Assembly: GCA_040217195.1 (NCBI GenBank)
Contig: JAVJNR010000002.1
Coordinates: forward strand, 256,001-320,000
Length of the DNA: 64,000 nt
DNA from: Leptospiraceae bacterium
Lineage (GTDB): Bacteria > Spirochaetota > Leptospiria > Leptospirales > Leptonemataceae
Reading direction: 5' to 3'
Part shown: positions 31,175 through 44,982 of the stretch, in pieces
Layout: every line of letters starts with the position of its first letter
Position numbering within the stretch: position 1 is the stretch's first letter
Program-made: the position numbers and the translations under genes
The notes under the pieces: model-generated
Seen by the model: the letters and a program-made list of their open reading frames with translations, nothing else
What the model was told of the DNA's origin: nothing
Databases searched by the model: none

Positions 31175-32236
31175 TCAAATTTTACGGAATCGGTAGTGGC
31201 TTACGAACCATTCGTTTCCATTTCTGGTGCCAAATAGTTCCTCGCAGGCCATAAAGAAGATCCTCCAGTATTCCACCCAGGGGGCTGCCTGGTCGGAGCC
31301 ATAGACTCCGTTGAACAGATCCTTGATTTCCTTTTTGTATCGGTCCATGTTATCCAGCCAGGCTCGAGCGGTTTTTTCATAATTTTGACCGTTGACCACT
31401 TGATGGTCTTCCAGTTGGAATCCGTCCGCGAAATACAAATAAAGATCATTGGAAGGCATAATGCCGCCGCTGAAGAAATACCGGCCCATCCAATTGGATT
31501 CACCCTCTTCCTCAAAAAAGTAGCTATATTCGCGATGTGCAAATACGTGAATGAACAGCTTTCCATTCTTCTTGAGCCAGCCACGCACTCGGGAAAAGAG
31601 CTCCCGATAATTGCGCATATGTTCAAACATTTCAATAGAAATCACACGATCGAAGCTGGATCGAATCTTGAAATCATTCATGTCTGCGGTGATCACTTTA
31701 ATGTTTTTTAATCCCTTATGCCTGGCTCGGTTTTCGATGTACTGCTTCTGGCTGGCAGAATTGGAAACAGCCGTAATTCTTGCCTTTGGTAACTTTTCTG
31801 CCATATACAGAGTCAAGCTACCCCAGCCACAGCCCAGTTCCAGAATGGACTGTCCGTTCCTCAGCTCTGCACTTCTGAGGTATCGGGCGAGCATCGCCTC
31901 TTCTGCGCCATCCAGATCTCGTATGCCACCTTCCCAGAGGCAGGCGCTGTATTTTTTGCGAGACCCCAGTACATAGTCATAGAATCGAGCTGGAACTTCA
32001 TAATGCTGCTCATTGGCTGCATCCGTTCGGACAGCGATGGGAGATCGCTCCAGCTCCTCCCGGAAGGCCTGAAAATGGGCCTGTTGCGCTTCGGCGCTTC
32101 CTTTCCATTCCTGCTTCAGTCGGGTGCGGTTTAGACTACGGATTCCCGTTCGAATCAAAAAATCAGGCACAATGCCACGGGCCAACATCCGATCTAGAAA
32201 TCCCGCCGAGGATTGTTCAGAATTCATCTTTTCCAT
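31175..32236 (-). CDS. SAM-dependent methyltransferase, CFA/CMAS-like family
   Basis: Motifs ANEQHYEVP, KYSACLW, LELGCGWGSL, ISIEMFEHMRN and WRIFFMAC. Confidence 0.88.
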   Translation of the reverse strand: MEKMNSEQSSAGFLDRMLARGIVPDFLIRTGIRSLNRTRLKQEWKGSAEAQQAHFQAFREELERSPIAVRTDAANEQHYEVPARFYDYVLGSRKKYSACLWEGGIRDLDGAEEAMLARYLRSAELRNGQSILELGCGWGSLTLYMAEKLPKARITAVSNSASQKQYIENRARHKGLKNIKVITADMNDFKIRSSFDRVISIEMFEHMRNYRELFSRVRGWLKKNGKLFIHVFAHREYSYFFEEEGESNWMGRYFFSGGIMPSNDLYLYFADGFQLEDHQVVNGQNYEKTARAWLDNMDRYKKEIKDLFNGVYGSDQAAPWVEYWRIFFMACEELFGTRNGNEWFVSHYRFRKI

Positions 32237-32443: not shown

Positions 32444-33925
32444 ATGAGCAACTCCAGCCCTGAAATATTACCAATTCGAACCCGTATGGGTTACGGAGCC
32501 GCAGAAATGGGCATTTTTGCGGTGGAGATGATGGTGCGTCTGCATCTGATGAAGTTCTACACCGATGTGGCCGGCTTAAGCGCTGGATTGGCCGGGATGG
32601 CCATTGCGGTCGCTATGTTCTGGGATGCCTTTACCGATCCTGTGATGGGAATTCTATCCGACCGAACCACTATGAGAATGGGTAAGAGGAGACCGTACCT
32701 ATTGCTGGGGAGTTTTGTCATGGCCCTGGCTTTTCTGGCCACTTTTAGACCTCCCATGCTGGATACAGAATCCGGTCGTTTCATTTTTCTTCTCATAAGC
32801 TATATAATTCTGAATACGGCCATGACCGTGTTGGCCGTCCCTCATTCGGCCCTGGGCGGAGAGCTTTCTTTTGATTCAAACGTCAGAACCTCAGTTTTCG
32901 CCTTCCGGCTGTTCTTTGGTAATATGGGCTTACTGGCTGGTACGATTCTACCCATTGTATTTTTGGATACCATCGCGCCTGCAATGGGAACCGGAGATAC
33001 TCCCGGTGTAAGAGATCCGGAGGCAGCCACCCAGGCCTATTTCTATGGAGCGGCCGTAATCGCCGGGCTAATTCTGCTGACTGGCTGGGTCAGTTACATG
33101 GCAACCGCGGGTAGAGACCGACCGGCCGAAAAGAGGCCTCCGTTGCGCGGAAAGGCCATTCTGAATGAAATCGGCCGGCTATTCCAGGTTCTGCGAAACC
33201 CTATCTTTGTCGTTCTTCTGGGTGCGTACTTCATCGCCTATGTTGGTGTTTCCATCAATTCTACTCTGGCTCTCTATTACTATGAATACAGGCTCAGACT
33301 GGATAGCGGCTCGGTGGGCATCATTCTGGTAGTTTTTATCATTGTATGGTCTGCATCGCTGGTATTCTGGACCTGGCTTTCACGAAAGGCTGGCAAGAAG
33401 TATCCAGGATTTGCCGGAGTATTCCTTCTCGGACTTGCAACCTGCATTACGTATCCATTCTTTCCTCCTGGCGAAATCCTGTATCCGCTAATCATGTCTG
33501 TGCTCGGAGGTTTCCTCGTAGGGGCCATTGTACTTCTGGATAGTCTGGTAGCTGACATTGTAGATTACGATGAGCTGAAGACAGGTGAACACCGGGAAGG
33601 ACTGTATTTTGGATTCTGGAAAATGGCTATCAAGGCATCCCGGGGAGTGTCCATGGCATTTACCGGAACTCTCCTGGCTGCCATAGGATTCCAGGCAAAT
33701 CAGATTCAGACCGAAGAAGTGAGCAATCGTATTGCAGTACTCTTTGGCCCGGGCGTTGGCGCATTCTTTCTACTGGGAGCCATTATCTTTCTATTTCTTC
33801 CCTACAGCCGGGCCATCCACCACAGGGTTCAGAATCTTCTGGTGCGAAAGAGAGAGCTTCGAAACCGCTTGCGTTCTGGTTCAGCCCACTTCCAATCCTC
33901 TGTGCAAACAGGAGGAACGGTATGA
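32444..33925 (+). CDS. MFS transporter, GPH/MelB-like family
   Basis: Motifs WDAFTDPVMGILSDRT..GKRRPY and ADIVDYDELKTGEHREGLYFG. About 12 TM helices. Confidence 0.92.
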   Translation: MSNSSPEILPIRTRMGYGAAEMGIFAVEMMVRLHLMKFYTDVAGLSAGLAGMAIAVAMFWDAFTDPVMGILSDRTTMRMGKRRPYLLLGSFVMALAFLATFRPPMLDTESGRFIFLLISYIILNTAMTVLAVPHSALGGELSFDSNVRTSVFAFRLFFGNMGLLAGTILPIVFLDTIAPAMGTGDTPGVRDPEAATQAYFYGAAVIAGLILLTGWVSYMATAGRDRPAEKRPPLRGKAILNEIGRLFQVLRNPIFVVLLGAYFIAYVGVSINSTLALYYYEYRLRLDSGSVGIILVVFIIVWSASLVFWTWLSRKAGKKYPGFAGVFLLGLATCITYPFFPPGEILYPLIMSVLGGFLVGAIVLLDSLVADIVDYDELKTGEHREGLYFGFWKMAIKASRGVSMAFTGTLLAAIGFQANQIQTEEVSNRIAVLFGPGVGAFFLLGAIIFLFLPYSRAIHHRVQNLLVRKRELRNRLRSGSAHFQSSVQTGGTV

Positions 33926-35775
33926 ACTTGAATGATTTTTTGCAACGTTATCCCTGGTCCAGATGGAACGTGGATCCAGAAAAAGAAAGAATCGTGGAAA
34001 ATCTCTGGATTTTCCCACTGGAAGTTAGTCGAGAAGATTTCTGGCCCTACATAGCAGATACATCCAGAACCAATAGCTTGCTGGGACTTCCAGAAATGAT
34101 TTTCGAAGAGAAGAATGGAAAGCTTTTCGGAAAGACCCGGTATGCAGGCATTCAGCATGAATGGGAAGAGGTGCCCTGGCAATGGCGTCGACCGGAAGAG
34201 CTGATTTCCGTGCGTCTGTACTCAAAGGGATTGGGCAGCATGGTTCGCGGAATTTTCTATCTGGAAGAATCCGGTGAAAACCGGACAAATGTACATATCT
34301 ATTTTGGATGGGTTGCCAGTGGTCTATTTGGCGCTCTATTTCTGAAAATCGGAACCGGAAGAATTAAATCCGGATTCGCAAACGTACTCAAGCAATACGA
34401 AAAAGAAATCCAGAGTTCAAAGACTAAAAAGCCGGCTGCGTTGACAACAATTGAGAAGCCAGTGATTGACCTGGAAGATAAGGCCAGAGCCATCGTGGAT
34501 CAGACGCGAAAGACCTGGGATAAGCAGGCAATTCCAGCGGAAGTGTCCGAGGCCCTGGTTCGAATTGTTACTCGATGGGACGATGTAGACCTGTATCGAA
34601 TTCGTCCATTGTCTCTGGCCGATCAGCTAGGTCTGGACAGCAGGGAGGTGATTCGAGCCTTCCTTTACGGGTGTCAGACAGGGCTATTTAATCTTACCTG
34701 GGACGTTATCTGTCCTCATTGTCGCGGAGTTAGAGAGGAAAAGGGCAGCCTGATGAAATTGGACGCCAGAGGCAGCTGCGACGTATGCGATATAGATTTC
34801 GATGCAACCGGCGAAGACAGTCTGGAAATTACCTTTCATGTCAGCCCATCGGTTCGGGACGTTAAGAAACAGTTCTTCTGTAGTGCAGAACCGGCTCGAA
34901 AGCCGCACATCATTCTGCAAGACCACCTACTTTCTGGAGAAGAGCGGAACGTAAACCTGCAACTGGATTCTGGCAGATACAGAGCAAGGCTCCAGGGAAG
35001 TCAGTCATTTTTCTGGCTCCAGTCCGATGACCTGAGCGGAATTCAAAGATATCGGTGGGAGGCAGGTGCAACGTCGACCGGAGAACCGGTAAGTGTTATC
35101 ACAAGGCCGGTCCTGGAATTAAAGAACTCGGATTCTAAAGCATTAACCTTCGTTGTCGATCGCAGCGATGCAGACAATGAAGTCCTGCGACCGGGGGATT
35201 TGTTTGCTCTGCCAGACTATCGATTACTGTATCCGGATGAAAGGCTCCCGGGAGATCTGAAAATAGACATCGGTGTACAGACCATCCTGTTCACTGATAT
35301 TGTCGGCTCTTCAAAAATGTATAATGAGCTGGGAGATACCGGGGCCTTTAAACGAGTAAGGGACCATTTTGCCTCCATCGGTGAAGTCATAGAATCTGGC
35401 AAGGGAGCGATAATAAAAACAGTAGGCGATGCTGTCTTTGCTGTCTTTGGAAACCAGGTCGATGCGTATCGCGCAGCTCTGGAATTGCGAAAGAGATTCG
35501 CAAGCACCGATGCCGCAGTTCAGATTCGCATATCATTGCATACAGGCCCCTGTCTGGCTGTGAACCTGGATACAGGCATCGATTACTTTGGAAACACTGT
35601 GAACCTGAGTGCCAAGCTTCAGGCATTTGCAGGCGCCGGGCAAATCGCATTCACCGGATCTGCTCTGGAAAGTTCCCTTGTAAGGGAGGAGCTTCGCAGG
35701 GAGGGATTGAGACCACAGGAGGTGGATTTGCCGGAGTCCATGAGCTGGATTCCGGACAAGGTGTACCGGGTATGA
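33922..35775 (+). CDS. DUF5939-type adenylate/guanylate cyclase with an N-terminal SRPBCC-like domain and a Cys cluster
   Basis: WDVICPHC...CDVC...FCSAEPARKPH in the middle region. Cyclase motifs LFTDIVGSS, IIKTVGDA and DYFGNTVNLSAKLQ. Confidence 0.87.
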   Translation: MNLNDFLQRYPWSRWNVDPEKERIVENLWIFPLEVSREDFWPYIADTSRTNSLLGLPEMIFEEKNGKLFGKTRYAGIQHEWEEVPWQWRRPEELISVRLYSKGLGSMVRGIFYLEESGENRTNVHIYFGWVASGLFGALFLKIGTGRIKSGFANVLKQYEKEIQSSKTKKPAALTTIEKPVIDLEDKARAIVDQTRKTWDKQAIPAEVSEALVRIVTRWDDVDLYRIRPLSLADQLGLDSREVIRAFLYGCQTGLFNLTWDVICPHCRGVREEKGSLMKLDARGSCDVCDIDFDATGEDSLEITFHVSPSVRDVKKQFFCSAEPARKPHIILQDHLLSGEERNVNLQLDSGRYRARLQGSQSFFWLQSDDLSGIQRYRWEAGATSTGEPVSVITRPVLELKNSDSKALTFVVDRSDADNEVLRPGDLFALPDYRLLYPDERLPGDLKIDIGVQTILFTDIVGSSKMYNELGDTGAFKRVRDHFASIGEVIESGKGAIIKTVGDAVFAVFGNQVDAYRAALELRKRFASTDAAVQIRISLHTGPCLAVNLDTGIDYFGNTVNLSAKLQAFAGAGQIAFTGSALESSLVREELRREGLRPQEVDLPESMSWIPDKVYRV

Positions 35776-35783
35776 GGTAGAAT

Positions 35784-36680
35784 ATGAAGTATCTGATTAA
35801 GGATCTCAGTAAATTAACAGGCTTTGACGGTGCCAGGATTCGAAAATGGCAGGAAAGGTATGGCATTCTGCGTCCAGAACGAGGGGCTAATGGCTATTGG
35901 TACTACGGAAATGAAGATTACATAGTGTTGCAGAATATGAAGCGGCTTCTGCAGAAGGGCGAAAAGCTGCAATCTGTGATTTCACTGGGTCGTGATCATC
36001 TGATTGGTATGATGGGTGCGGATGATTTCTCCGAGCATGAAATGTCACTCATTCAAAGAATCTCCTCCAATGAATTCTCCAGTATCGAAGAGGACTTTAA
36101 TGAACTCTATTCGCAGATGCCTTTTGGTCAGTTTGTTCGTGGTCCTATCCGGGACGCTGCAGTACTAACGGGGAGTGCCTGGGAAGCGGGCCTATTGTCC
36201 GTAGCCGAAGAGCATTCATTCTCTCGCTGGCTATTTACTTACATCTATGGAAAGACAGGTGCACTGGGCATTCCATCTGATCCTGTATGGCTGGTTTGTG
36301 TCTTTCCTGGAGATCCCCATGAACTGGGTGCGTTGATGCATTATGCGCTTCTGGTTTCGAAAAGGGTTCCGGCGAAGTACGCAGGGACTCTGTCCATAGA
36401 TCATATTATCGATGAAATTAAGAGGAACGGATACAGAAATCTAAGTCTGTCGATGATCATGCCTCAATCACCAGAAAAGATAGAAAGCATTCGCAGTCGC
36501 ATAAAGGAAAGGACCGGACTGCGAAAGGTTCTGATTGGAGGAAGAGGCTACAGGTCATCTTATTCGTCTGGAGAGGACGGTGATGGTCTTCAGTACTGTG
36601 AGCCGCCAGTGATTAATAAGCGCCGGAAAATCCTCCTGGAAAACATAAATAGATCAATAGAGAGCTCGAAGCAGGACTAG
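35784..36680 (+). CDS. MerR-family B12-binding regulator (CarH/LitR-type photoreceptor)
   Basis: MerR HTH (IKDLSKLTG...IRKWQERYG..RPER..NGY), W-x9-EH (WEAGLLSVAEEH), D-x-H-x-x-G (DPHELG) and a C-terminal IGG. Confidence 0.85.
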   Translation: MKYLIKDLSKLTGFDGARIRKWQERYGILRPERGANGYWYYGNEDYIVLQNMKRLLQKGEKLQSVISLGRDHLIGMMGADDFSEHEMSLIQRISSNEFSSIEEDFNELYSQMPFGQFVRGPIRDAAVLTGSAWEAGLLSVAEEHSFSRWLFTYIYGKTGALGIPSDPVWLVCVFPGDPHELGALMHYALLVSKRVPAKYAGTLSIDHIIDEIKRNGYRNLSLSMIMPQSPEKIESIRSRIKERTGLRKVLIGGRGYRSSYSSGEDGDGLQYCEPPVINKRRKILLENINRSIESSKQD

Positions 36681-36726
36681 AGGAAATTGCGAAATACTTA
36701 ATCAATAGCAATTAGAGGTAAATTGG

Positions 36727-38007
36727 ATGAGGGTAGGAATTGTTGGAAGCGGTATCTCCGGTCTCGGGGCCGCGTATCATTTAAAGACAAGATACGGTCA
36801 TGACGTTGAAATCTTTGAAAAGAACAGTTATGCAGGCGGCCATACCAATACCATACCACTGGAAGAGGATGGTCATCCGGTGGCAGTGGATACAGGTTTC
36901 ATAGTCTTTAATGAACGGACCTATCCAGAACTGATCAAACTATTCGCAGAATTGGATGTGGAGTCCCAGCCAGGGGATATGTCCTTTAGCGTCTGGAATT
37001 TGCGGAATAATCTGCAATGGAGTGGAAACGGTTTCTCAGGTCTCTTTGCTCAGAAGCGAAATCTAATGAATCCCCATTATCTGCGAATGCTTTCATCCGC
37101 GAAGCGCTTTTTTAGTGAAGGTGCGGAAGATACAAACCTGGACCCTGATCTGTCGATTGGGCAGTATCTCGGGGACAGAGGGTATTCTAAATATTTCTGC
37201 GATAATTTTGTAATCCCCATGGCCTCCGCCGTTTGGTCCACTCCTATGAAAGAGATGCTGGGTTTTCCCGCCGGATCTTTGCTGCGCTTCTTCAAGAATC
37301 ATGGAATGCTAGATATTGAGAAGACTGTGATCTGGCGAACGCTTTTGGGCGGTTCCTGGACCTACGTTAAAGCGATTCAGCAAAGAGCGGATCTGAAAAT
37401 TCATCTGAATCAGCCCACCCGAGAAGTGAGAAAAAACGAGGGTGGGGCGATGATTGTTACTGATTCCGGAGAACACCAGTTCGACGCAGTGCTCATGGCC
37501 TGCCATTCGAATCAGGCAATCGGCCTGTTTCCGGGTATGCCGGAAGAGCATCGAAACATTCTGAAGCATTTCAAGTACCAGAAAAACCAGGCCATTTTGC
37601 ATAGCGACGAGCGTGCGATGCCACCAAGAAAGAAGGCCTGGGCTGCCTGGAACTTCAAAGTCACTGAAGATGAGCGGACTTGCACAGTTTACTGGATGAA
37701 TAAGTTGCAGAATCTGCACAAGCAGGGGGCGCAAAGAGAATACTTCGTATCCATCAATGAATTCCAGAACATCGACGAATCCAAAATCCATCGGGTTATC
37801 AACTATGAGCATCCACTGTTTGATGTTCAGGCAGTGAAAAACCAGAAAGAACTTCTTCGAATCAATCAGGAAGGACCGGTCCATTACTGCGGTGCCTATT
37901 TTCGATACGGCTTTCATAAAGATGGACTGTGGTCCGGGCTCCAGGCGGCCAGATCTCTGAATGAGCGGTTGGTAGGTTCGGAGGCTCTTGCAGGACGCGG
38001 AAAGTAG
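36727..38007 (+). CDS. FAD-dependent oxidoreductase (amine-oxidase-like, UfaD-like fatty-acid desaturase)
   Basis: Motifs VGSGISGL, GGHTNT, VDTGFIVFN, YWMNKLQ and GAYFRYGFH. Sits next to DUF1365 and cfa-like genes. Confidence 0.87.
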   Translation: MRVGIVGSGISGLGAAYHLKTRYGHDVEIFEKNSYAGGHTNTIPLEEDGHPVAVDTGFIVFNERTYPELIKLFAELDVESQPGDMSFSVWNLRNNLQWSGNGFSGLFAQKRNLMNPHYLRMLSSAKRFFSEGAEDTNLDPDLSIGQYLGDRGYSKYFCDNFVIPMASAVWSTPMKEMLGFPAGSLLRFFKNHGMLDIEKTVIWRTLLGGSWTYVKAIQQRADLKIHLNQPTREVRKNEGGAMIVTDSGEHQFDAVLMACHSNQAIGLFPGMPEEHRNILKHFKYQKNQAILHSDERAMPPRKKAWAAWNFKVTEDERTCTVYWMNKLQNLHKQGAQREYFVSINEFQNIDESKIHRVINYEHPLFDVQAVKNQKELLRINQEGPVHYCGAYFRYGFHKDGLWSGLQAARSLNERLVGSEALAGRGK

Positions 38008-38027
38008 TCCCGAGTCGAGTATTGTCA

Positions 38028-38966
38028 ATGCAGGATCAGATTCTAAACAGCGTAATGTACAATGCCACTGTGTATCACAGAAGAATGCAGGTGGCCATAC
38101 ATGAGTTTCGCACCAGTATGTATACCTGGTATCTGGATCTGGATGAGCTCGATTCATTGAGCGAGAAGCATCCAATTCTTATTGGAGTGAATCGTTCGGG
38201 AATTTACTCTTACAGGGATTCGGATCACTTCCGATTCTGGAACGCAGAAAGAAAGGAAAATGCGAGCATCAATCCTGCAATTCCGGGAAAGATGCGAAGG
38301 AAGGAAAACTCAAACGCGAATTCAAAGAAGTCGGGAATTTCTGCTGCAGCTACTGGCGCCAGTCAGGTGCGCTCCTGGGTGAATCAGTATTTCCGCGAAA
38401 AGGACCAGCCAGAGCCCCATCGTGTTTTGTTGCTTACGAATCTGAGATATCTAGGTTATGGTTTCAATCCGGTGAGCTTCTATTTTGCTCTGGATCGGAA
38501 AGACCGACTCTATGCAATTCTAGCGGAAGTAAACAACACATTTGGAGAACAGAAGCCGTACTTGATACTGCTGGATAAGCCGGTGGAGGATTCTGAAGAT
38601 AAGCGAATCCATGCCCGGGCCTGGAAGAATTTCTATGTTTCTCCCTTCATCGACCGGGACCGAGAATTCGTTTTTCGCATGAAGAGACCAGGAGAGAAGC
38701 TCAGTCTCGGAATAGATACATACGAATCGGAGCAGCCAGTCTTGAGAGCGGCTTACTCCGGGCGACGAATGGCCATTACCCGAACAAGTATGCTTATGAA
38801 TATGCTTCGCTTTCCGTTTGTAACGATCAAGGTAATAGCACTGATTCACTGGCATGCTTTACGTTTATATCTGAAGAAAGTTCCATTTTTTAGCAAGGAA
38901 TCAACGGACAAACTAATCAGGAAAGATGAAAACAAAAGAAATGAGGTTACCCATGCTGCGGTCTAA
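38028..38966 (+). CDS. DUF1365 family protein (UfaO-like)
   Basis: Motifs VYHRR, LDLDEL, LGYGFNPVSFYF, AEVNNTFGE, KNFYVSPF and IHWHALRLYLK. Confidence 0.9.
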   Translation: MQDQILNSVMYNATVYHRRMQVAIHEFRTSMYTWYLDLDELDSLSEKHPILIGVNRSGIYSYRDSDHFRFWNAERKENASINPAIPGKMRRKENSNANSKKSGISAAATGASQVRSWVNQYFREKDQPEPHRVLLLTNLRYLGYGFNPVSFYFALDRKDRLYAILAEVNNTFGEQKPYLILLDKPVEDSEDKRIHARAWKNFYVSPFIDRDREFVFRMKRPGEKLSLGIDTYESEQPVLRAAYSGRRMAITRTSMLMNMLRFPFVTIKVIALIHWHALRLYLKKVPFFSKESTDKLIRKDENKRNEVTHAAV

Positions 38967-40245
38967 ACAAACTCCCCAACATTTCCTCAAAGGAAATCGA
39001 CTTCCCCAAAAAGAGATCCAGGATTATCCCCGAGGATTTTATCAATCAGTGTTCCACCGTGTCATGTCCCGGGCTACCAGCGGGCAACTGAATCTAGAAA
39101 TAGGAGATGGAACTCATATATATGGTGAATCCGGCTCAGCGGAGGCGGTAAGTCTACGAGTACTGGATGACAGATTTTTCAAGCACGCCGTGCTGCACGG
39201 AGATATTGGATTCGGTGAAGGTTTTGTAGAAGGTCTATGGGACACAGATGATCTTCATGGAGTGCTGAGCTGGTTTCTGCAGAACGGAGATTCCAATCCT
39301 ACTTTCGCTCAGGGGGCAGCCAAAAGCCTGGTCGTGGGCGGGCTGAATTTTCTGGACAAAGTCGGTCATGCCTTTCGTCGGAATACCCGGCAAGGCAGTC
39401 TTAGAAATATTAGCTATCACTATGATATCTCCAACGATCTGTACAGGCTGATGCTGGATCCAACAATGGCCTATTCTTCTGGCAAATACTCCGAAGGAGT
39501 CAATGATCTGCAGAAGGCTCAGGAAAAGAAATACGAGACTATCTGTCGTAAGCTTGCCCTGAAACCGGATCTGGAGCTGCTTGAAGTGGGCTCCGGCTGG
39601 GGCGGCTTTGCCATATATGCAGCAAAGCACTATGGATGCAAAGTTACTACTGTTACAATTTCGCAGCAGCAGTTTGACTATACCCGGGAATTGATAGAGA
39701 GTGAGGGTATGGAGGATCGTGTTAAGGTTTTGCTTCAGGATTACAGGGATATTGAAGGAACCTATGACCGAATCGTTAGTATTGAAATGGTGGAAGCTCT
39801 GGGTCTTGAATACCACGATACATTCTTCAAGAAAATGAATCAGCTACTTAAAACTCAGGGAATCATGCTAATACAGTGTATAACGTTCCCGGAGAGCTCT
39901 TATGATCGATACGTTCAAAGCATAGATTGGATTGCGAAACACATTTTTCCAGGTTCTCTGTTGCTTTCCCAGTTTGAAGTAATGAAGTCGCTTAAAAGAG
40001 TAACGGATCTCAACATCTATAGCATTGAAAGCCTGGGTCTGAGCTATGCCAGGACTCTGAATGCGTGGTATGAAAGATTCAATGCCAATTTGGAACGGGT
40101 CAGAGAACTGGGTTTTGATGATACGTTCATTCGACTCTGGAATTACTACCTGGCATACTGCGAAGTAGGTTTTGCCAGTCGATACATCAATGATGTTCAC
40201 ATAGTGTTTTCCAGGTCTCAGAATACAGAATTGCCAGACGGTTAA
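38926..40245 (+). CDS. cfa: Cyclopropane-fatty-acyl-phospholipid synthase family methyltransferase
   Basis: Motifs NISYHYDISND, LDPTMAYSS, LEVGSGWG, IVSIEMVE, IFPG and WNYYLAYCE. Confidence 0.9.
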   Translation: MKTKEMRLPMLRSKQTPQHFLKGNRLPQKEIQDYPRGFYQSVFHRVMSRATSGQLNLEIGDGTHIYGESGSAEAVSLRVLDDRFFKHAVLHGDIGFGEGFVEGLWDTDDLHGVLSWFLQNGDSNPTFAQGAAKSLVVGGLNFLDKVGHAFRRNTRQGSLRNISYHYDISNDLYRLMLDPTMAYSSGKYSEGVNDLQKAQEKKYETICRKLALKPDLELLEVGSGWGGFAIYAAKHYGCKVTTVTISQQQFDYTRELIESEGMEDRVKVLLQDYRDIEGTYDRIVSIEMVEALGLEYHDTFFKKMNQLLKTQGIMLIQCITFPESSYDRYVQSIDWIAKHIFPGSLLLSQFEVMKSLKRVTDLNIYSIESLGLSYARTLNAWYERFNANLERVRELGFDDTFIRLWNYYLAYCEVGFASRYINDVHIVFSRSQNTELPDG

Positions 40246-40271
40246 AGAGTCTTAGAACAACGGAGGTATCT

Positions 40272-40520
40272 ATGTCGGAAGAAACAGAAGACATGCTTAT
40301 GAAGAGCATGGAATCCCAGCTGATCACTCTCTATGGAGAGCGGGAATTGCTGCTGGAGGAATTGGGTGTATGCAACGCTCAAGAATTGATCGCACTGATT
40401 AAGAGCATGGAAGCGCAACTGGCAGACCTCTACGCTGATAGGGAGAATGCCATTATAATAGATGGAAATCGGATAACGATTTCGGGCCCAAAGAAGATCT
40501 TTGTCCGAAAGAGTAAATAA
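40272..40520 (+). CDS. 82-aa protein with a 33-aa tandem repeat, directly upstream of pyp
   Basis: GGAGG RBS. KSMESQLITLYGERE and KSMEAQLADLYADRE repeat with a 99-nt period. Confidence 0.85.
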   Translation: MSEETEDMLMKSMESQLITLYGERELLLEELGVCNAQELIALIKSMEAQLADLYADRENAIIIDGNRITISGPKKIFVRKSK

Positions 40521-40546
40521 TTCCGCGAAAGGAAAAGGAGAATACA

Positions 40547-40972
40547 ATGAGTGAAGCAATAATGAAGAAAATCCAGGAGCAAGCCGCCTACTGGGCCCAG
40601 AGCAGTGCCAGGTTTGTGGAAGACACCGTAGTTGAGGAGATTGCTGGCTATGATCGTTCGAAAATCGATGAGCTGCCCCATGGAGTCATTAAGCTGGATG
40701 ATGAAGGGAAGGTCCTATTGTTCAGCCGATATGAATCCCAGAAGTCCGGTGTCCCCGTTGCAGAAGCGGAAGGTAAGCTGTTTTTCAGCCAGGTGGCTCC
40801 CTGCACAAACAATGCAATCTTTCTGGGAGCATTCCAAAAGGGTGTGTCGGAAGGGCATATGGATTTGATTTTTCCTTACACATTTACCTATAAGATGAAA
40901 CCCGCTCCGGTAAAGGTTCATCTGTATCGCAAGGAGGGAACCAGGGATAACTGGGTCTTCATCAAGTGGTAG
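40547..40972 (+). CDS. pyp: Photoactive yellow protein
   Basis: Motifs LPHGVIKLD, FFSQVAPCT (chromophore Cys86, equivalent to Cys69) and YTFTYKMKPAPVKVH..WVFIK align with H. halophila PYP. AAGGAG RBS; adjacent ligase and TAL. Confidence 0.95.
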   Translation: MSEAIMKKIQEQAAYWAQSSARFVEDTVVEEIAGYDRSKIDELPHGVIKLDDEGKVLLFSRYESQKSGVPVAEAEGKLFFSQVAPCTNNAIFLGAFQKGVSEGHMDLIFPYTFTYKMKPAPVKVHLYRKEGTRDNWVFIKW

Positions 40973-42471
40973 ATGTCTGGAAGAATCTACTTTACCGGCG
41001 GCTGAAAGGAAAGTCGGAGCCTTTATTTCTATTCCCGGAGCAAGCCGTGTCAGCTGCGGCTCTGTGGATGGGAGTAAGGCTCTGGTTGCAGCGCTGGCAA
41101 AGAGAAGATCCGGTTGTGTTTGCAGCCATCGGAGCAGGTCCCGAATACCTGGAGGTATTGGTGGCTACGCTGGTGCGAGGAGGTACTTTTGTTGCCGGTC
41201 ATCCGGAACAGGGATTCGAACATCTCAGGACTGAAATCCTGCAGTGGCAACCAGACTTTGTGGTTCTGGATAGGCATTCATCCTTTACAATTCCCGGATA
41301 TAGGATATGCGATGAAGTCAACGAACATCGTAATGCCTTACTGTTAGGCCGGATCCATGGTTACGAAGATTTGCAGGAAAAGCACCCTCTGCGGCAATTC
41401 CACTCATCTGAGCGAAGAATCATTCTTTCCACGTCTGGAACCACAGGTGGTCAGCGAAAATGGGCTATCCTTTCAGACTACAATCTATTTAGCGTATTGC
41501 GCACTCATCTACCCAGACTACAAATGAAAGGCGCTACGGTTCTGAGCGTACTTCCCTGGAATCATGCCTTTGGATTAATACTGGATCTAATTCCTGCACT
41601 CCTCCGGGCTCGCACTATTGTCAGAGACATTCCAGGGGACGCTTCCCGATTTCTCGCTGTTCAGAAACGATTTGGGATTGATTATGTAAGTGCAGTCCCC
41701 GCAGTATTCGATCGTTGGCTAAAGGATGACTCCGTTAAAGATGTAATCGGAAGCTTTACAGGTGGTCTGCTCGGAGGAGCTTCCGTAAATTCTCAACTGG
41801 CCAATGCACTTCGCGGTAGTAGCTTTCGAGTTGGATACGGGCAAACCGAGGCATCACCCGGAATCACTCTTGGAAATGCCGGAGATTTCAAACAGGGATT
41901 TATTGGCAACGTACTGGGATGTGAAGTAGATATCTCACAGGGAACATTGCATTATCGTGGTCCCAACGTTTGCACTGCCATGGTTAATTTCACCGAATCG
42001 CCAGGTATTCAATTCTCTGAATCGACCAGAGTAGCGCTAGAAGATGCAATGCATTCGTTAACTATAGGGATTCAAAAAAGAGATTCGGGTAACTGGCAGG
42101 ACACCGGCGATATAGTCCAGGAAGTGGAGGGCGGTTTCAGATATCTGGGCCGTGCCAATGATAATTTCAAACTCTCCAATGGACGTTTTCTGGATGCCAT
42201 TGCCTGGGAGAAAGCCCTGGAAGAATCCACCGGGTATCATTGCTATATCGTTTCATTTGATGGTGGTTTCAAAGTCTACTTCGCAGCCCCGGACCATGAA
42301 TCCGGTAAACAATCATTCCCTACGATAAAATTACAAGCCAGACAGTCTCTGGGAAAACTAGGCGAATACATTCGAGGGATGGAGTTCCTGCAGGCCCGGG
42401 ATATACCTCGCAGCTCCAAGGGCGATGTGAATCGGTCCGCACTATCCAATCCAAAGGCCGGAGGATCATAA
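40966..42471 (+). CDS. pcl: AMP-dependent ligase, probable p-coumaroyl-CoA ligase for PYP
   Basis: Motifs STSGTTG, LPWNHAFG, GYGQTEASP and DTGD. Overlaps the pyp stop. Substrate inferred from gene context. Confidence 0.8.
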   Translation: MVDVWKNLLYRRLKGKSEPLFLFPEQAVSAAALWMGVRLWLQRWQREDPVVFAAIGAGPEYLEVLVATLVRGGTFVAGHPEQGFEHLRTEILQWQPDFVVLDRHSSFTIPGYRICDEVNEHRNALLLGRIHGYEDLQEKHPLRQFHSSERRIILSTSGTTGGQRKWAILSDYNLFSVLRTHLPRLQMKGATVLSVLPWNHAFGLILDLIPALLRARTIVRDIPGDASRFLAVQKRFGIDYVSAVPAVFDRWLKDDSVKDVIGSFTGGLLGGASVNSQLANALRGSSFRVGYGQTEASPGITLGNAGDFKQGFIGNVLGCEVDISQGTLHYRGPNVCTAMVNFTESPGIQFSESTRVALEDAMHSLTIGIQKRDSGNWQDTGDIVQEVEGGFRYLGRANDNFKLSNGRFLDAIAWEKALEESTGYHCYIVSFDGGFKVYFAAPDHESGKQSFPTIKLQARQSLGKLGEYIRGMEFLQARDIPRSSKGDVNRSALSNPKAGGS

Positions 42472-42472
42472 T

Positions 42473-42994
42473 ATGACTAACAATTCAACGGAAATGGAAG
42501 GGCTAATTTCCAACAGTAAAGTAGAGCATCTTCTGGAATACTTACTCTCCGACGCTCCGCTTTCTGAGGAACAAAAGCAACACTTAACAGAAGAGGCGAA
42601 TACCTGGAAGCAGGACTTGCTAGATCAGTCTTCCATATTTGCGCAAACCAGGCAGCTGCAATCCTACATTGCCCTGCGCTTCACCGAACTGAAGGCTCGC
42701 TGGATTATCTTGAATGCTCGAATACAGGACTGCAACCGCCAGCTGGTTCAGCCAGATCCTGAATTACTCTACCAATCCTCCATTCTCAGTGGATTCCTGG
42801 GTATGCTGGAAGAAGGATTGGAGGCAGGTAGACTGCATCTAATCAATGATGCCCTGGCAAACCAGGCATCAAGTCTGGAAGGCGGGCCGTACGTGGTTAT
42901 CGAGGGAGATCAAGTGATTATTGAAGGAAAGCGAAAGGTGATGATCTATAGAAAGAGCAGTTTAGACGATGATTCTAACAAGCAGTCCTCCTGA
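42473..42994 (+). CDS. Hypothetical helical protein in the PYP operon
   Basis: GGAGG RBS, 1 bp after the ligase stop, overlapping TAL. Its C-terminal motif is shared with the 82-aa protein. Confidence 0.8.
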   Translation: MTNNSTEMEGLISNSKVEHLLEYLLSDAPLSEEQKQHLTEEANTWKQDLLDQSSIFAQTRQLQSYIALRFTELKARWIILNARIQDCNRQLVQPDPELLYQSSILSGFLGMLEEGLEAGRLHLINDALANQASSLEGGPYVVIEGDQVIIEGKRKVMIYRKSSLDDDSNKQSS

Positions 42995-44528
42995 ACCAGA
43001 GCAACTGGAGGCACTGACCGATTCTGTTCAGATCTCTACTGAAGTCCAGCAGGTCGCTATCGTCAGCAGGCAGCATTTTGACCGTGCCGTTGCGGCCGGA
43101 CAGTCTATATACGGAACGACCACCGGCTACGGTCCATTTGTAGGCTTTCAGGCCCGGGAAGATGGAGGAACTGATTTAATTGAGCATTTGCTTGTTGGAA
43201 GCGGCGAAGCATTGCCTCCAGATCTAATCTCCCCGGCCCTTTATTTGAGGGCCTGGACCATGGCCCAGGGAAGGTCTGGAGTGCGAATCCCGGTAATTCA
43301 GGCTTATCTGGATGCACTTGGTATTTGTCAGACAGGAATGTATCCGGAAATTCCATCCATCGGATCTCTGGGTGCCAGCGGTGATCTTATACCTCTGGCT
43401 CATCTATTGAATGCAATTCTTGGCAGGGGCTCATGGAAAGGGCACTCCGGTAAGACCAGAGTTGCAAATCTAGTAAAAGGTCATTCCATGGATAGACGCG
43501 AAGCCCTGGCCTGTATCAATGGAATCAGTTTTAGTAAGGCCGGCGCTTCTCTGACTTACTGCAAGCTGAATCGCCTACTTCGGATACATGAAATACTGAC
43601 AGCCATTCTATACTATCTTCTGGATGCCAACCCGGATCATCTCAGCCCTACTCTTTTTCAGTCTGCGAATCCTTCCAATACAGCCGGTCGAATGCTCAAT
43701 TATCTAAACTCAATAAATAAGCGAGCGAGCCAGGGAAACTCCGGTCATTCAGGCGCGAAAGATCTGCAACACAGCGCAGAAGGCGAAAGCCCGCGTCATG
43801 GCTACGCACTTCAGGCCCCTTACAGTCTTAGATGCGCTCCACAGACCATAAGTGCCTGCCTGGGGCTATTGAATTCTGCCAGAAGCTCTATTTTTCAGGA
43901 TCTTGAAACCATCGATGACAATCCATTGATCGATCCGGAAACAGGTTTTGTAGCTCATGGAGGAAATTTCTTTGGGCAGTCCACTGCATTCGGCAGCGAT
44001 GAGCTTACAATGGCCGCCTGTCAGTCTGGAGTGCTGGCCGAGCGCCAGCTGGCCTTGATTCTGGATCCAGACTTAAATGGCGAAGAGGCATTGATGCTGG
44101 CGAGAAAACCAGGCCATAGCAGCGGGCTTGCAGGACTGCAACTGACTACTACAGCTCTGGTGGCTGAAATGAGAAGTTTGAGCCAAATGCATAGCACCTA
44201 CAGTATTCCTACGAACGGCAAAAACCAGGATATTGTACCTATGGCCTTTCTGGCTTCCAGACGTGCCCACCAGGTTACGATTCATCTTTCGGCTGTTCTA
44301 GGAGCTCTTTTAATGGCTACCAGAAATCTCTGGCAAATGCGAAATGAAAATGAGGTAGTCTTTGATTATCCCTTCTGGCCGGAACATCGTCTTCGAATGC
44401 TCAGCGAAGCAATTGTCCTGGCTGGAGAAATGGAATACCCGGATGAGTCCCTGGGAAAAACCCTTCAATTTTATCAAAGAGCATTAATAAACCGGGAGAT
44501 CTTGAGCGATGAAAATCTATACCCTTGA
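42969..44528 (+). CDS. tal: Aromatic amino acid ammonia-lyase, probable tyrosine ammonia-lyase
   Basis: Motifs IYGTTTGYG, MIO-forming ASG (SLGASGDL), YSLRC, HGGNF and NQDIV. His-Leu at the specificity switch (LIEHL) matches TALs. Confidence 0.87.
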   Translation: MILTSSPPEPEQLEALTDSVQISTEVQQVAIVSRQHFDRAVAAGQSIYGTTTGYGPFVGFQAREDGGTDLIEHLLVGSGEALPPDLISPALYLRAWTMAQGRSGVRIPVIQAYLDALGICQTGMYPEIPSIGSLGASGDLIPLAHLLNAILGRGSWKGHSGKTRVANLVKGHSMDRREALACINGISFSKAGASLTYCKLNRLLRIHEILTAILYYLLDANPDHLSPTLFQSANPSNTAGRMLNYLNSINKRASQGNSGHSGAKDLQHSAEGESPRHGYALQAPYSLRCAPQTISACLGLLNSARSSIFQDLETIDDNPLIDPETGFVAHGGNFFGQSTAFGSDELTMAACQSGVLAERQLALILDPDLNGEEALMLARKPGHSSGLAGLQLTTTALVAEMRSLSQMHSTYSIPTNGKNQDIVPMAFLASRRAHQVTIHLSAVLGALLMATRNLWQMRNENEVVFDYPFWPEHRLRMLSEAIVLAGEMEYPDESLGKTLQFYQRALINREILSDENLYP

Positions 44529-44982
44529 GACTCAGGTTACTCTGAACGCTTCGGTGAAGGAGGCCTGGGAATTCTTTTCTGATCCTGGAAATCTAAGCAC
44601 TATTACACCGGCATCCATGGGCTTTGAGATTACTCAGCAGGATGGAAAATCTATGTATCCGGGGATGATGATTGGTTATCGCCTTCGGCCTTTTGGCGGG
44701 ATTCCTATTGGATGGGTCACTGAGATTACCCATGTCCGGGAGCCCTATTTCTTTGTGGATGAACAACGTTTTGGTCCGTATCGGCTTTGGCATCATAAGC
44801 ATTTCTTCGAAGAAACCGAAAGTGGATTGCATTGCCGGGACCTAGTTCACTATGCATTACCGGGTGGTTTGGCCGGACGGGCGCTGCATCCTTTCCTGAT
44901 TCGTCCACGTCTGGAGCAGATTTTTTCCTTCAGGCGAATGGTACTGTTAAAGATATTTCGTGGTCCGGAAGTAGAGGATTAG
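44509..44982 (+). CDS. SRPBCC family protein
   Basis: Motifs WEFFSDPGNL..ITP, WVTEIT and FVDEQRFGPY..WHHKH. Confidence 0.88.
   Translation: MKIYTLETQVTLNASVKEAWEFFSDPGNLSTITPASMGFEITQQDGKSMYPGMMIGYRLRPFGGIPIGWVTEITHVREPYFFVDEQRFGPYRLWHHKHFFEETESGLHCRDLVHYALPGGLAGRALHPFLIRPRLEQIFSFRRMVLLKIFRGPEVED

Follow-up and report, generated by a model that had tools for sequence, protein, structure and literature searches.

Two small acidic proteins encoded around a clade-B-type photoactive yellow protein gene of Leptospirales and the modular family to which they belong

A 64,000-nucleotide window of a Leptospirales genome (contig JAVJNR010000002.1, assembly GCA_040217195.1; closest protein matches labelled Leptospiraceae bacterium) contains a run of 12 plus-strand genes that includes a gene for photoactive yellow protein (PYP) and two small unnamed genes beside it, here called ORF82 and ORF173 after the lengths of their products in amino acids (aa). 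An earlier note on this DNA had proposed that the two proteins, otherwise dissimilar, share a C-terminal beta-rich tag and may form a partner complex of PYP. The analysis reported here establishes the homology of the tails, recasts the relationship between the two proteins and weighs what they might do for PYP.

The locus and the modules of its two small proteins

The run spans 32444-44982 in the order MFS transporter, DUF5939 cyclase, CarH-like MerR/B12 regulator, flavin amine oxidase, DUF1365, cfa, ORF82, pyp, pcl, ORF173, tal and SRPBCC; neighbouring genes are separated by -41 to 46 bp throughout (Table 1). The order from cyclase to SRPBCC is identical in three complete loci of the genus, and a fourth locus matches from cfa onward. 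ORF173 is tightly packed, starting after a 1 bp gap behind pcl and overlapping tal by 26 bp, and the ATG codons of ORF82 and ORF173 are preceded by the ribosome-binding sites ACGGAGG and CCGGAGG, respectively. Both reading frames, the starts of their tails, the good ribosome-binding sites and the position of both genes among pyp, pcl and tal are as the earlier note had described them. Promoter and terminator scans returned chance-level signals only.

Table 1 Genes and protein modules of the PYP gene run (window coordinates)
Feature	Position	Strand	Remarks
MFS transporter, DUF5939 adenylate cyclase, CarH-like MerR/B12 regulator, flavin amine oxidase, DUF1365, cfa-type methylase	32444..40245	+	Upstream part of run
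ORF82 (R-T protein), 82 aa, isoelectric point (pI) 4.7	40272..40520	+	Predicted helical hairpin (residues 3-31, 36-58) plus tail
R module of ORF82	40305..40445	+	One full 33-aa acidic repeat and the first half of another
T module of ORF82, residues 61-82, basic	40452..40517	+	Tail profile
Clade-B-type photoactive yellow protein (pyp), 141 aa, predicted	40547..40972	+	Alignment to H. halophila PYP
AMP-binding CoA ligase, presumed p-coumaroyl-CoA ligase (pcl)	40966..42471	+	PF00501; substrate inferred from position; start codon uncertain
ORF173 (H-T protein), 173 aa, pI 4.7	42473..42994	+	No repeats
H module of ORF173, residues 1-135, all-helical bundle	42473..42877	+	Conserved E72, W77, N81, E113
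T module of ORF173, residues 141-160	42893..42952	+	Predicted strands 140-144, 147-151, 155-159
Aromatic amino acid lyase, presumed tyrosine ammonia-lyase (tal)	42969..44528	+	PF00221; substrate inferred
SRPBCC-type protein, closing gene of run	44509..44982	+	Weak PF10604; same position in 4/4 genus loci fetched

To describe the modules of the two proteins, a profile built from nine ORF82 relatives was searched and found 385 representatives at E<=0.001; local hidden Markov models (HMMs) then sorted the best 150. Three modules emerged: H, a helical module of about 120-135 aa; R, a 33-aa acidic helix-turn-helix repeat; and T, a basic three-strand tail. Among these best 150, R alone was found in 70, R-T in 21, H-R-T in 11 and H-R in two, R was fused to a PYP domain in 45 (44 without the chromophore cysteine, one with it), and one remained unassigned. 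ORF82 carries a full repeat at residues 12-44 and a half repeat at 45-58, both beginning S-M-E-x-Q-L-x-x-L-Y, and its residues 1-58 have a net charge of -10. ORF173 aligns to H-R-T fusions at both ends, with the middle repeats missing; an SLE motif right before its tail may be a repeat remnant. Further H-R-T fusions occur at loci L010, L012, L013 and L065. Given the homologous tail on both proteins and these natural fusions, ORF82 (R-T) and ORF173 (H-T) are complementary trimmed members of one undescribed, enzyme-free modular family, rather than two otherwise unrelated families with a common tag.

The homology of the tails, on which this description depends, is real, and a profile test decided it. 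The pairwise match is marginal, with 5 of 21 residues identical in register and a Smith-Waterman score of 47 that was attained by 141 of 20,000 shuffles; hhalign of the two close families gave 59% (E 9e-5). The decisive tail HMM was built from 40 tails of repeat-bearing proteins only, contained no ORF173-type sequence, and was searched against 62,412 six-frame open reading frames of the genome. ORF82 ranked first (3e-14), ORF173 second (1e-4) and a protein on contig C10 third (0.013), with noise from 1.4. The conserved core is hhh(D/E)G-xx-hxhxG-x(K/R)Khhh. The stricter pattern written in the earlier note, which ends in RKS, fits ORF82 alone, because the final RKS of ORF173 lies one residue out of register (it is reached only through a one-residue gap) and is not kept among ORF173 relatives, which carry YKRG, YKKG, YRKG or YKKA instead. 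The shared motif therefore stands by profile, although not in its written form, and it is conserved in homologs of both proteins.

Neither family had been recognized in the earlier note, and R, H and T indeed matched no family of Pfam, NCBIfam or PHROGs above the curated cutoff; these searches returned only PAS/PYP matches on fused PYP domains and sub-cutoff coiled-coil matches. AlphaFold2 modeled H of ORF173 as a confident helical bundle, with a predicted local distance difference test score (pLDDT) of 93-98 over residues 11-130, and T as three short strands at a pLDDT near 70, in agreement with the beta-rich character proposed earlier. ORF82 was predicted as a helical hairpin whose tail is extended in the monomer, again at a pLDDT near 70. 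Foldseek with the ORF173 model found no match in the PDB or among viral structures at E<=0.001, and the best VIA match of the same model, to the Jac1/HscB helical domain (Z 8.4, root-mean-square deviation 2.8, 86 residues), lies within the helical-bundle background. Sequence searches of the PDB with R, H and T profiles gave weak matches only, the best (E 0.0045) to a designed coiled coil. T may resemble oligomerisation tails of the beta-helical spike type. A three-chain prediction of PYP, ORF173 and ORF82, with ORF82 scored and custom alignments, returned 0.00 in two runs. The controls did not fold, the fold of the partner was uncertain and three-chain predictions lie outside the calibrated range; the score is evidence neither for nor against binding.

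The third constituent of the locus, the gene at 40547, is predicted to encode a clade-B-type PYP. In the alignment to Halorhodospira halophila PYP (E 2e-23), C86, within VAPCT, falls on Cys69 and E63 on Glu46, whereas F59 occupies the Tyr42 site as the tolerated Y42F variant; phenylalanine at position 42 is recorded for about 9% of PYP members (PMC9664959). The protein has an N-terminal extension of ~17 residues, and its TIGR02373 score of 96 bits is under the cutoff of 143, as is likewise the case for the clade-B entries examined in the supplement of that paper.

Tail distribution and linkage to PYP

A T-only profile gave 79 matches in 45 of 156 Leptospirales genomes, a count that is partly circular because the profile was built from 37 known tails of fetched loci. 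By coordinates, 78 of the 79 end R, H or third-type proteins, and the remaining one is a weak match on a 36-aa frame. PYP is present in 44 of the 45 tail-bearing genomes, and T in none of the 90 genomes that lack both R and PYP, so T co-occurs with pyp, and homologs are not found mostly without pyp, an outcome that the earlier note had named as refuting. T is almost confined to Leptospirales, the single outside locus at which it was seen being L026. About 80% of R proteins lack T yet adjoin PYP or are fused to a PYP domain, and R-only proteins of 57-60 aa adjoin pyp in several phyla. Judged by this distribution, T is a lineage-specific add-on rather than a general link to PYP, and R is the module tied to PYP across phyla.

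Within its lineage, T is under purifying selection. It is the best-conserved part of all three tailed proteins (identity of T versus the upstream module 88 versus 77, 77 versus 52 and 92 versus 61%), with synonymous to non-synonymous codon differences of 154:15 in ORF82 and 175:26 in the third tailed protein. At 24 loci with at least two separate partner genes (a tally that excludes L008, broken by an N run), T is on all partners at 16 and on none at five; at three, one partner has T and the other a degenerate tail. Degenerate T is seen on the R proteins of genus g33. On the H tree, which is midpoint-rooted and has long branches, the ORF173 group nests among H-R-T fusions in a supported clade (97/95), apart from a second H-T group; these two separate groups suggest that the repeats were lost twice with T retained.

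The third tailed protein, that of contig C10 (G000:C10:796798-797586; L045:1299-2087), has 263 aa and combines a distant H-like N-terminus (hhalign 97.6%), an acidic linker, a coiled coil and a near-invariant T. Among the 156 genomes searched, it was found only in six of the seven genomes of this genus. Its gene follows Suf-type genes and two hydrolase-like genes and precedes a Vut_1 transporter.

R is tightly linked to clade-B pyp. At the family level, R is found in 14 of 42 genomes and the same 14 have PYP; across the 156 genomes of the order, R occurs in 65 and PYP in 65, with both in 64 and neither in 90, and the sole PYP-only genome (G151) nevertheless has R- and H-like genes beside pyp. 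Of 80 pattern matches in GTDB contigs, 19 were confirmed; pyp adjoins R in 18, and the 19th ends at a contig edge. The record titles name Sandaracinaceae, Kofleriaceae, Myxococcales, Ignavibacteria, Kapaibacterium, Hydrogenedens, Luminiphilus, Rickettsiales, Salinibacter and Leptospiraceae. In the phylum to which a Sandaracinaceae genome belongs, 301 genomes were sampled; R or H was found in ten, all with a same-contig pyp within about 1 kb. These ten are the ten best of 25 PYP scorers, those most like the window PYP, and the other 15 have no R or H. In 401 genomes centred on a Luminiphilus genome, 16 PYP-type loci were found, with clear R or H within 1.5 kb at three, a doubtful case at one and none at 12, among them 11 distant PYP loci and the higher-scoring locus L103. 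R and H are, by these surveys, markers of clade-B-type PYP.

Several variants of these architectures were observed. The 44 long repeat arrays ending in a PYP domain without the chromophore cysteine (P0017-P0164, L044:6476-7945) reach 1290 aa, and in a Salinibacter genome one long R array lies directly ahead of pyp, pcl and tal (L044:6476-7945); P0047 is an R array fused to a PYP domain that keeps the cysteine. At L029, L032, L033 and L039-L041, a helix-turn-helix domain (HTH_17 scored for L039) precedes PYP in the same protein and a short R-only gene lies alongside; these fusions are possible light-controlled DNA-binding proteins. L046:2205-5886 holds a tandem duplication, R-T, pyp, R-T, pyp, followed by pcl and H-T, with AICT in the first PYP and APCT in the second; the PYPs at L049:3010-3561 and L065:5465-5902 keep APCT. 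Stand-alone H genes occur in a Salinibacter genome, divergent from a second pyp (L081:6344-7853), and in an Ignavibacteria genome with no pyp within the 12 kb fetched (L082:6257-6667). Non-spirochaete R proteins L089, L091, P0033, P0115 and P0156 end in a different tail, a helix plus beta-hairpin, for which hhalign found no homology to T (0.2%).

Known pyp operons and candidate roles

Signalling by single-domain PYPs is an open question (PMC12826048, PMC9664959), with one biochemically shown partner, in R. capsulatus. The locus resembles the pyp-pcl-tal operon of H. halophila, where genes for a CoA ligase and an aromatic amino acid lyase likewise come after that of a single-domain PYP, but that operon consists of these three genes only (PMC12826048), whereas here the PYP is of clade-B type, with Phe42 and an N-terminal extension, and two unnamed genes are added. 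It also resembles the clade-B neighbourhoods of Xing, Gumerov and Zhulin 2022 (PMC9664959), in which a spirochaete and Salinibacter PYP clade is distinguished, two Leptospira rows of the data set have 'None' genes just before pyp and between ligase and lyase, and an adjacent chemoreceptor is proposed as the PYP partner. In contrast to that proposal, no chemoreceptor adjoins the PYP run in this window, nor most of the non-spirochaete loci scanned, and the available text leaves the unnamed neighbours undescribed. The L. biflexa (Leptospira biflexa) pyp operon, as given in supplement 2 of PMC12826048, comprises a 123-aa PYP with a 134-aa hypothetical gene upstream, matching locus L060 in lengths and order; R of the L060 type, unlike ORF82, is tail-less and accompanies a short PYP, and the 134-aa L. 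biflexa gene is probably R.

The partner shown in R. capsulatus, PBP (rcc01067), is according to bioRxiv 10.1101/2021.06.01.446672 a dimeric protein of 142 aa and pI 3.9, with N-terminal helices plus beta sheets, that is encoded beside pyp and binds lit PYP. ORF82 and ORF173 are likewise small, acidic, unnamed and encoded next to pyp; by analogy, PBP may be a functional model for what R or H do. R, H and T are undescribed in PMC12826048 and in the available parts of PMC9664959 and the bioRxiv report; the supplements of the first two enter such neighbours as 'hypothetical' or 'None'. Our literature search found no paper on them, although Meyer et al. 2012 (doi 10.1039/c2pp25090j) and the Salinibacter PYP papers, which lay outside that search, may mention these genes. 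By its gene content, the locus is a variant of the known pyp operon with undescribed families of candidate partners.

In the model that we consider best overall, and to which we give about even chances, R and H are enzyme-free partners of clade-B PYPs and T is a self-association module joining them. R, and probably H, would bind PYP directly, plausibly in a light-state-dependent manner, and would either relay its signal or keep it within an assembly; we rate this step slightly better than an even bet, because of the analogy to the acidic R. capsulatus PBP and the R-PYP fusions. T would be too small to fold alone and would pair with other T tails in a shared beta sheet, bringing R-T, H-T and third tailed proteins together without covalent fusion, which forms part of the same evenly balanced proposal. 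Such pairing would explain both why the two split partners keep T and why T folds poorly on its own. A complex, strand swapping and a readout of the PYP signalling state, all put forward in the earlier note, stay conjectural. A more ambitious version, which we put forward only tentatively, is that H, R and T are the missing transducer of clade-B PYPs, in which R captures PYP according to light state and T assembles separate modules in place of fusion; if so, the third, unlinked tailed protein would be a recruited pathway branch. The locus supplies small soluble partner candidates, module borders and residues to mutate, so that the question is testable with three purified proteins. The tail would be a 20-residue module letting the parts of a split family reassemble, and light-switched binding, if it occurs, would be useful as an optogenetic pair.

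Several points weigh against this model. Its support consists throughout of genomic context and prediction, and related genomes are not independent, so that the counts carry no p-values; the circularity of the tail count and the rooting of the H tree add to this. T occurs on only 30 to 32 of the best 150 of 385 representatives, the codon-difference ratio of the ORF173 tail, 40:24, barely exceeds the 96:68 of the preceding 40 codons, and one tail-bearing genome (G060, 660 contigs) gave no PYP match. No pyp lies near the third tailed protein, and in genus g33 an intact R-T and H-R-T pair persists in 17 genomes with no intervening pyp. A search of the genome of the window for an ortholog of the pyp-linked chemoreceptors found none.

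A different reading of the tail makes it a tag for a third party, such as an anionic membrane, a chemoreceptor array, a protease or another protein, that would co-locate the three tailed proteins without mutual binding. T is basic, with a pI of 9-11, and is found only at the C-terminus of proteins that are acidic elsewhere; it is near-invariant on a third protein unlinked to pyp, and its all-or-none retention would follow from a shared receptor no less than from self-pairing. Its alternating hydrophobic strands and poor monomer folding nevertheless fit strand pairing, and no conserved candidate receptor gene recurs at tailed loci, so we regard the tag as unlikely. That T is a functionless leftover of an old H-R-T gene duplication is disfavoured and very improbable: common descent would account for T on both genes, and its degeneration on g33 R proteins would agree, but no other part of the three proteins is as well conserved as T, and T survived the loss of the repeats. 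Binding of T to the N-terminal extension of PYP was also considered, as PYP is extended at 26 of 26 tail-bearing pyp loci and short at five tail-less Leptospirales loci; it was not adopted, because in 17 genomes that retain T the only PYP is a short one, and at L030 an extended PYP occurs in the absence of T.

The remaining rivals concern R and H. As biogenesis factors without a signalling role, they would chaperone apo-PYP or hand over p-coumaroyl-CoA from the ligase, which would suit the packing of ORF173 between pcl and tal and the frequent position of H genes directly after pyp or pcl. Many R-pyp loci, however, lack pcl or tal in the DNA fetched, the 44 long R arrays terminate in a PYP domain that lacks a cysteine for loading, and H. 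halophila makes do with its three-gene operon, which leaves this role quite unlikely. Alternatively, the main client of the tailed pair might be an output protein, for example a sensor-less chemoreceptor, and the pair could function with whichever PYP the cell has or without one. In the g33 genomes just mentioned, the pair stands behind a soluble chemoreceptor gene in three of three loci fetched; at L059:4955-8670, L069 and L074, the order is a soluble chemoreceptor (N-terminal MCP signal domain), R-T, H-R-T and a short-chain dehydrogenase; pyp is absent. Chemoreceptor genes also flank L051, L052, L060, L061 and L070, and the coupling proposed by Xing et al. points the same way. Against this, all 17 genomes retain a pyp, their only match lying on another contig and, in the one case fetched, beside a tail-less R, and the scarcity of adjacent chemoreceptors noted above does not favour it; we judge it distinctly improbable.

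Neighbouring genes

Within the upstream part of the run, 35784-40245 holds the CarH-like MerR/B12 regulator followed by the amine oxidase, DUF1365 and cfa-type methylase genes, which resemble furan fatty acid genes; the oxidase/DUF1365/methylase set is likened to the furan fatty acid pathway of R. sphaeroides (PMC7380195). Given this resemblance, the entire run may be a light-stress unit governed by the CarH-like regulator, and two light-sensor types may share a single gene run. We take DUF1365 to be UfaO and presume that the furan pathway is linked to light stress. The adenylate cyclase is, by its position alone, an output candidate in this genus; in other Leptospirales a chemoreceptor gene adjoins the partner genes. 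A second cfa-type gene lies at 31175-32236 on the strand opposite to the run. On contig C10, a tandem repeat with a unit of roughly 78 bp occupies G000:C10:787600-788250 between an adenylate cyclase-like gene and the Suf-type genes; each of its strands contains long open frames.

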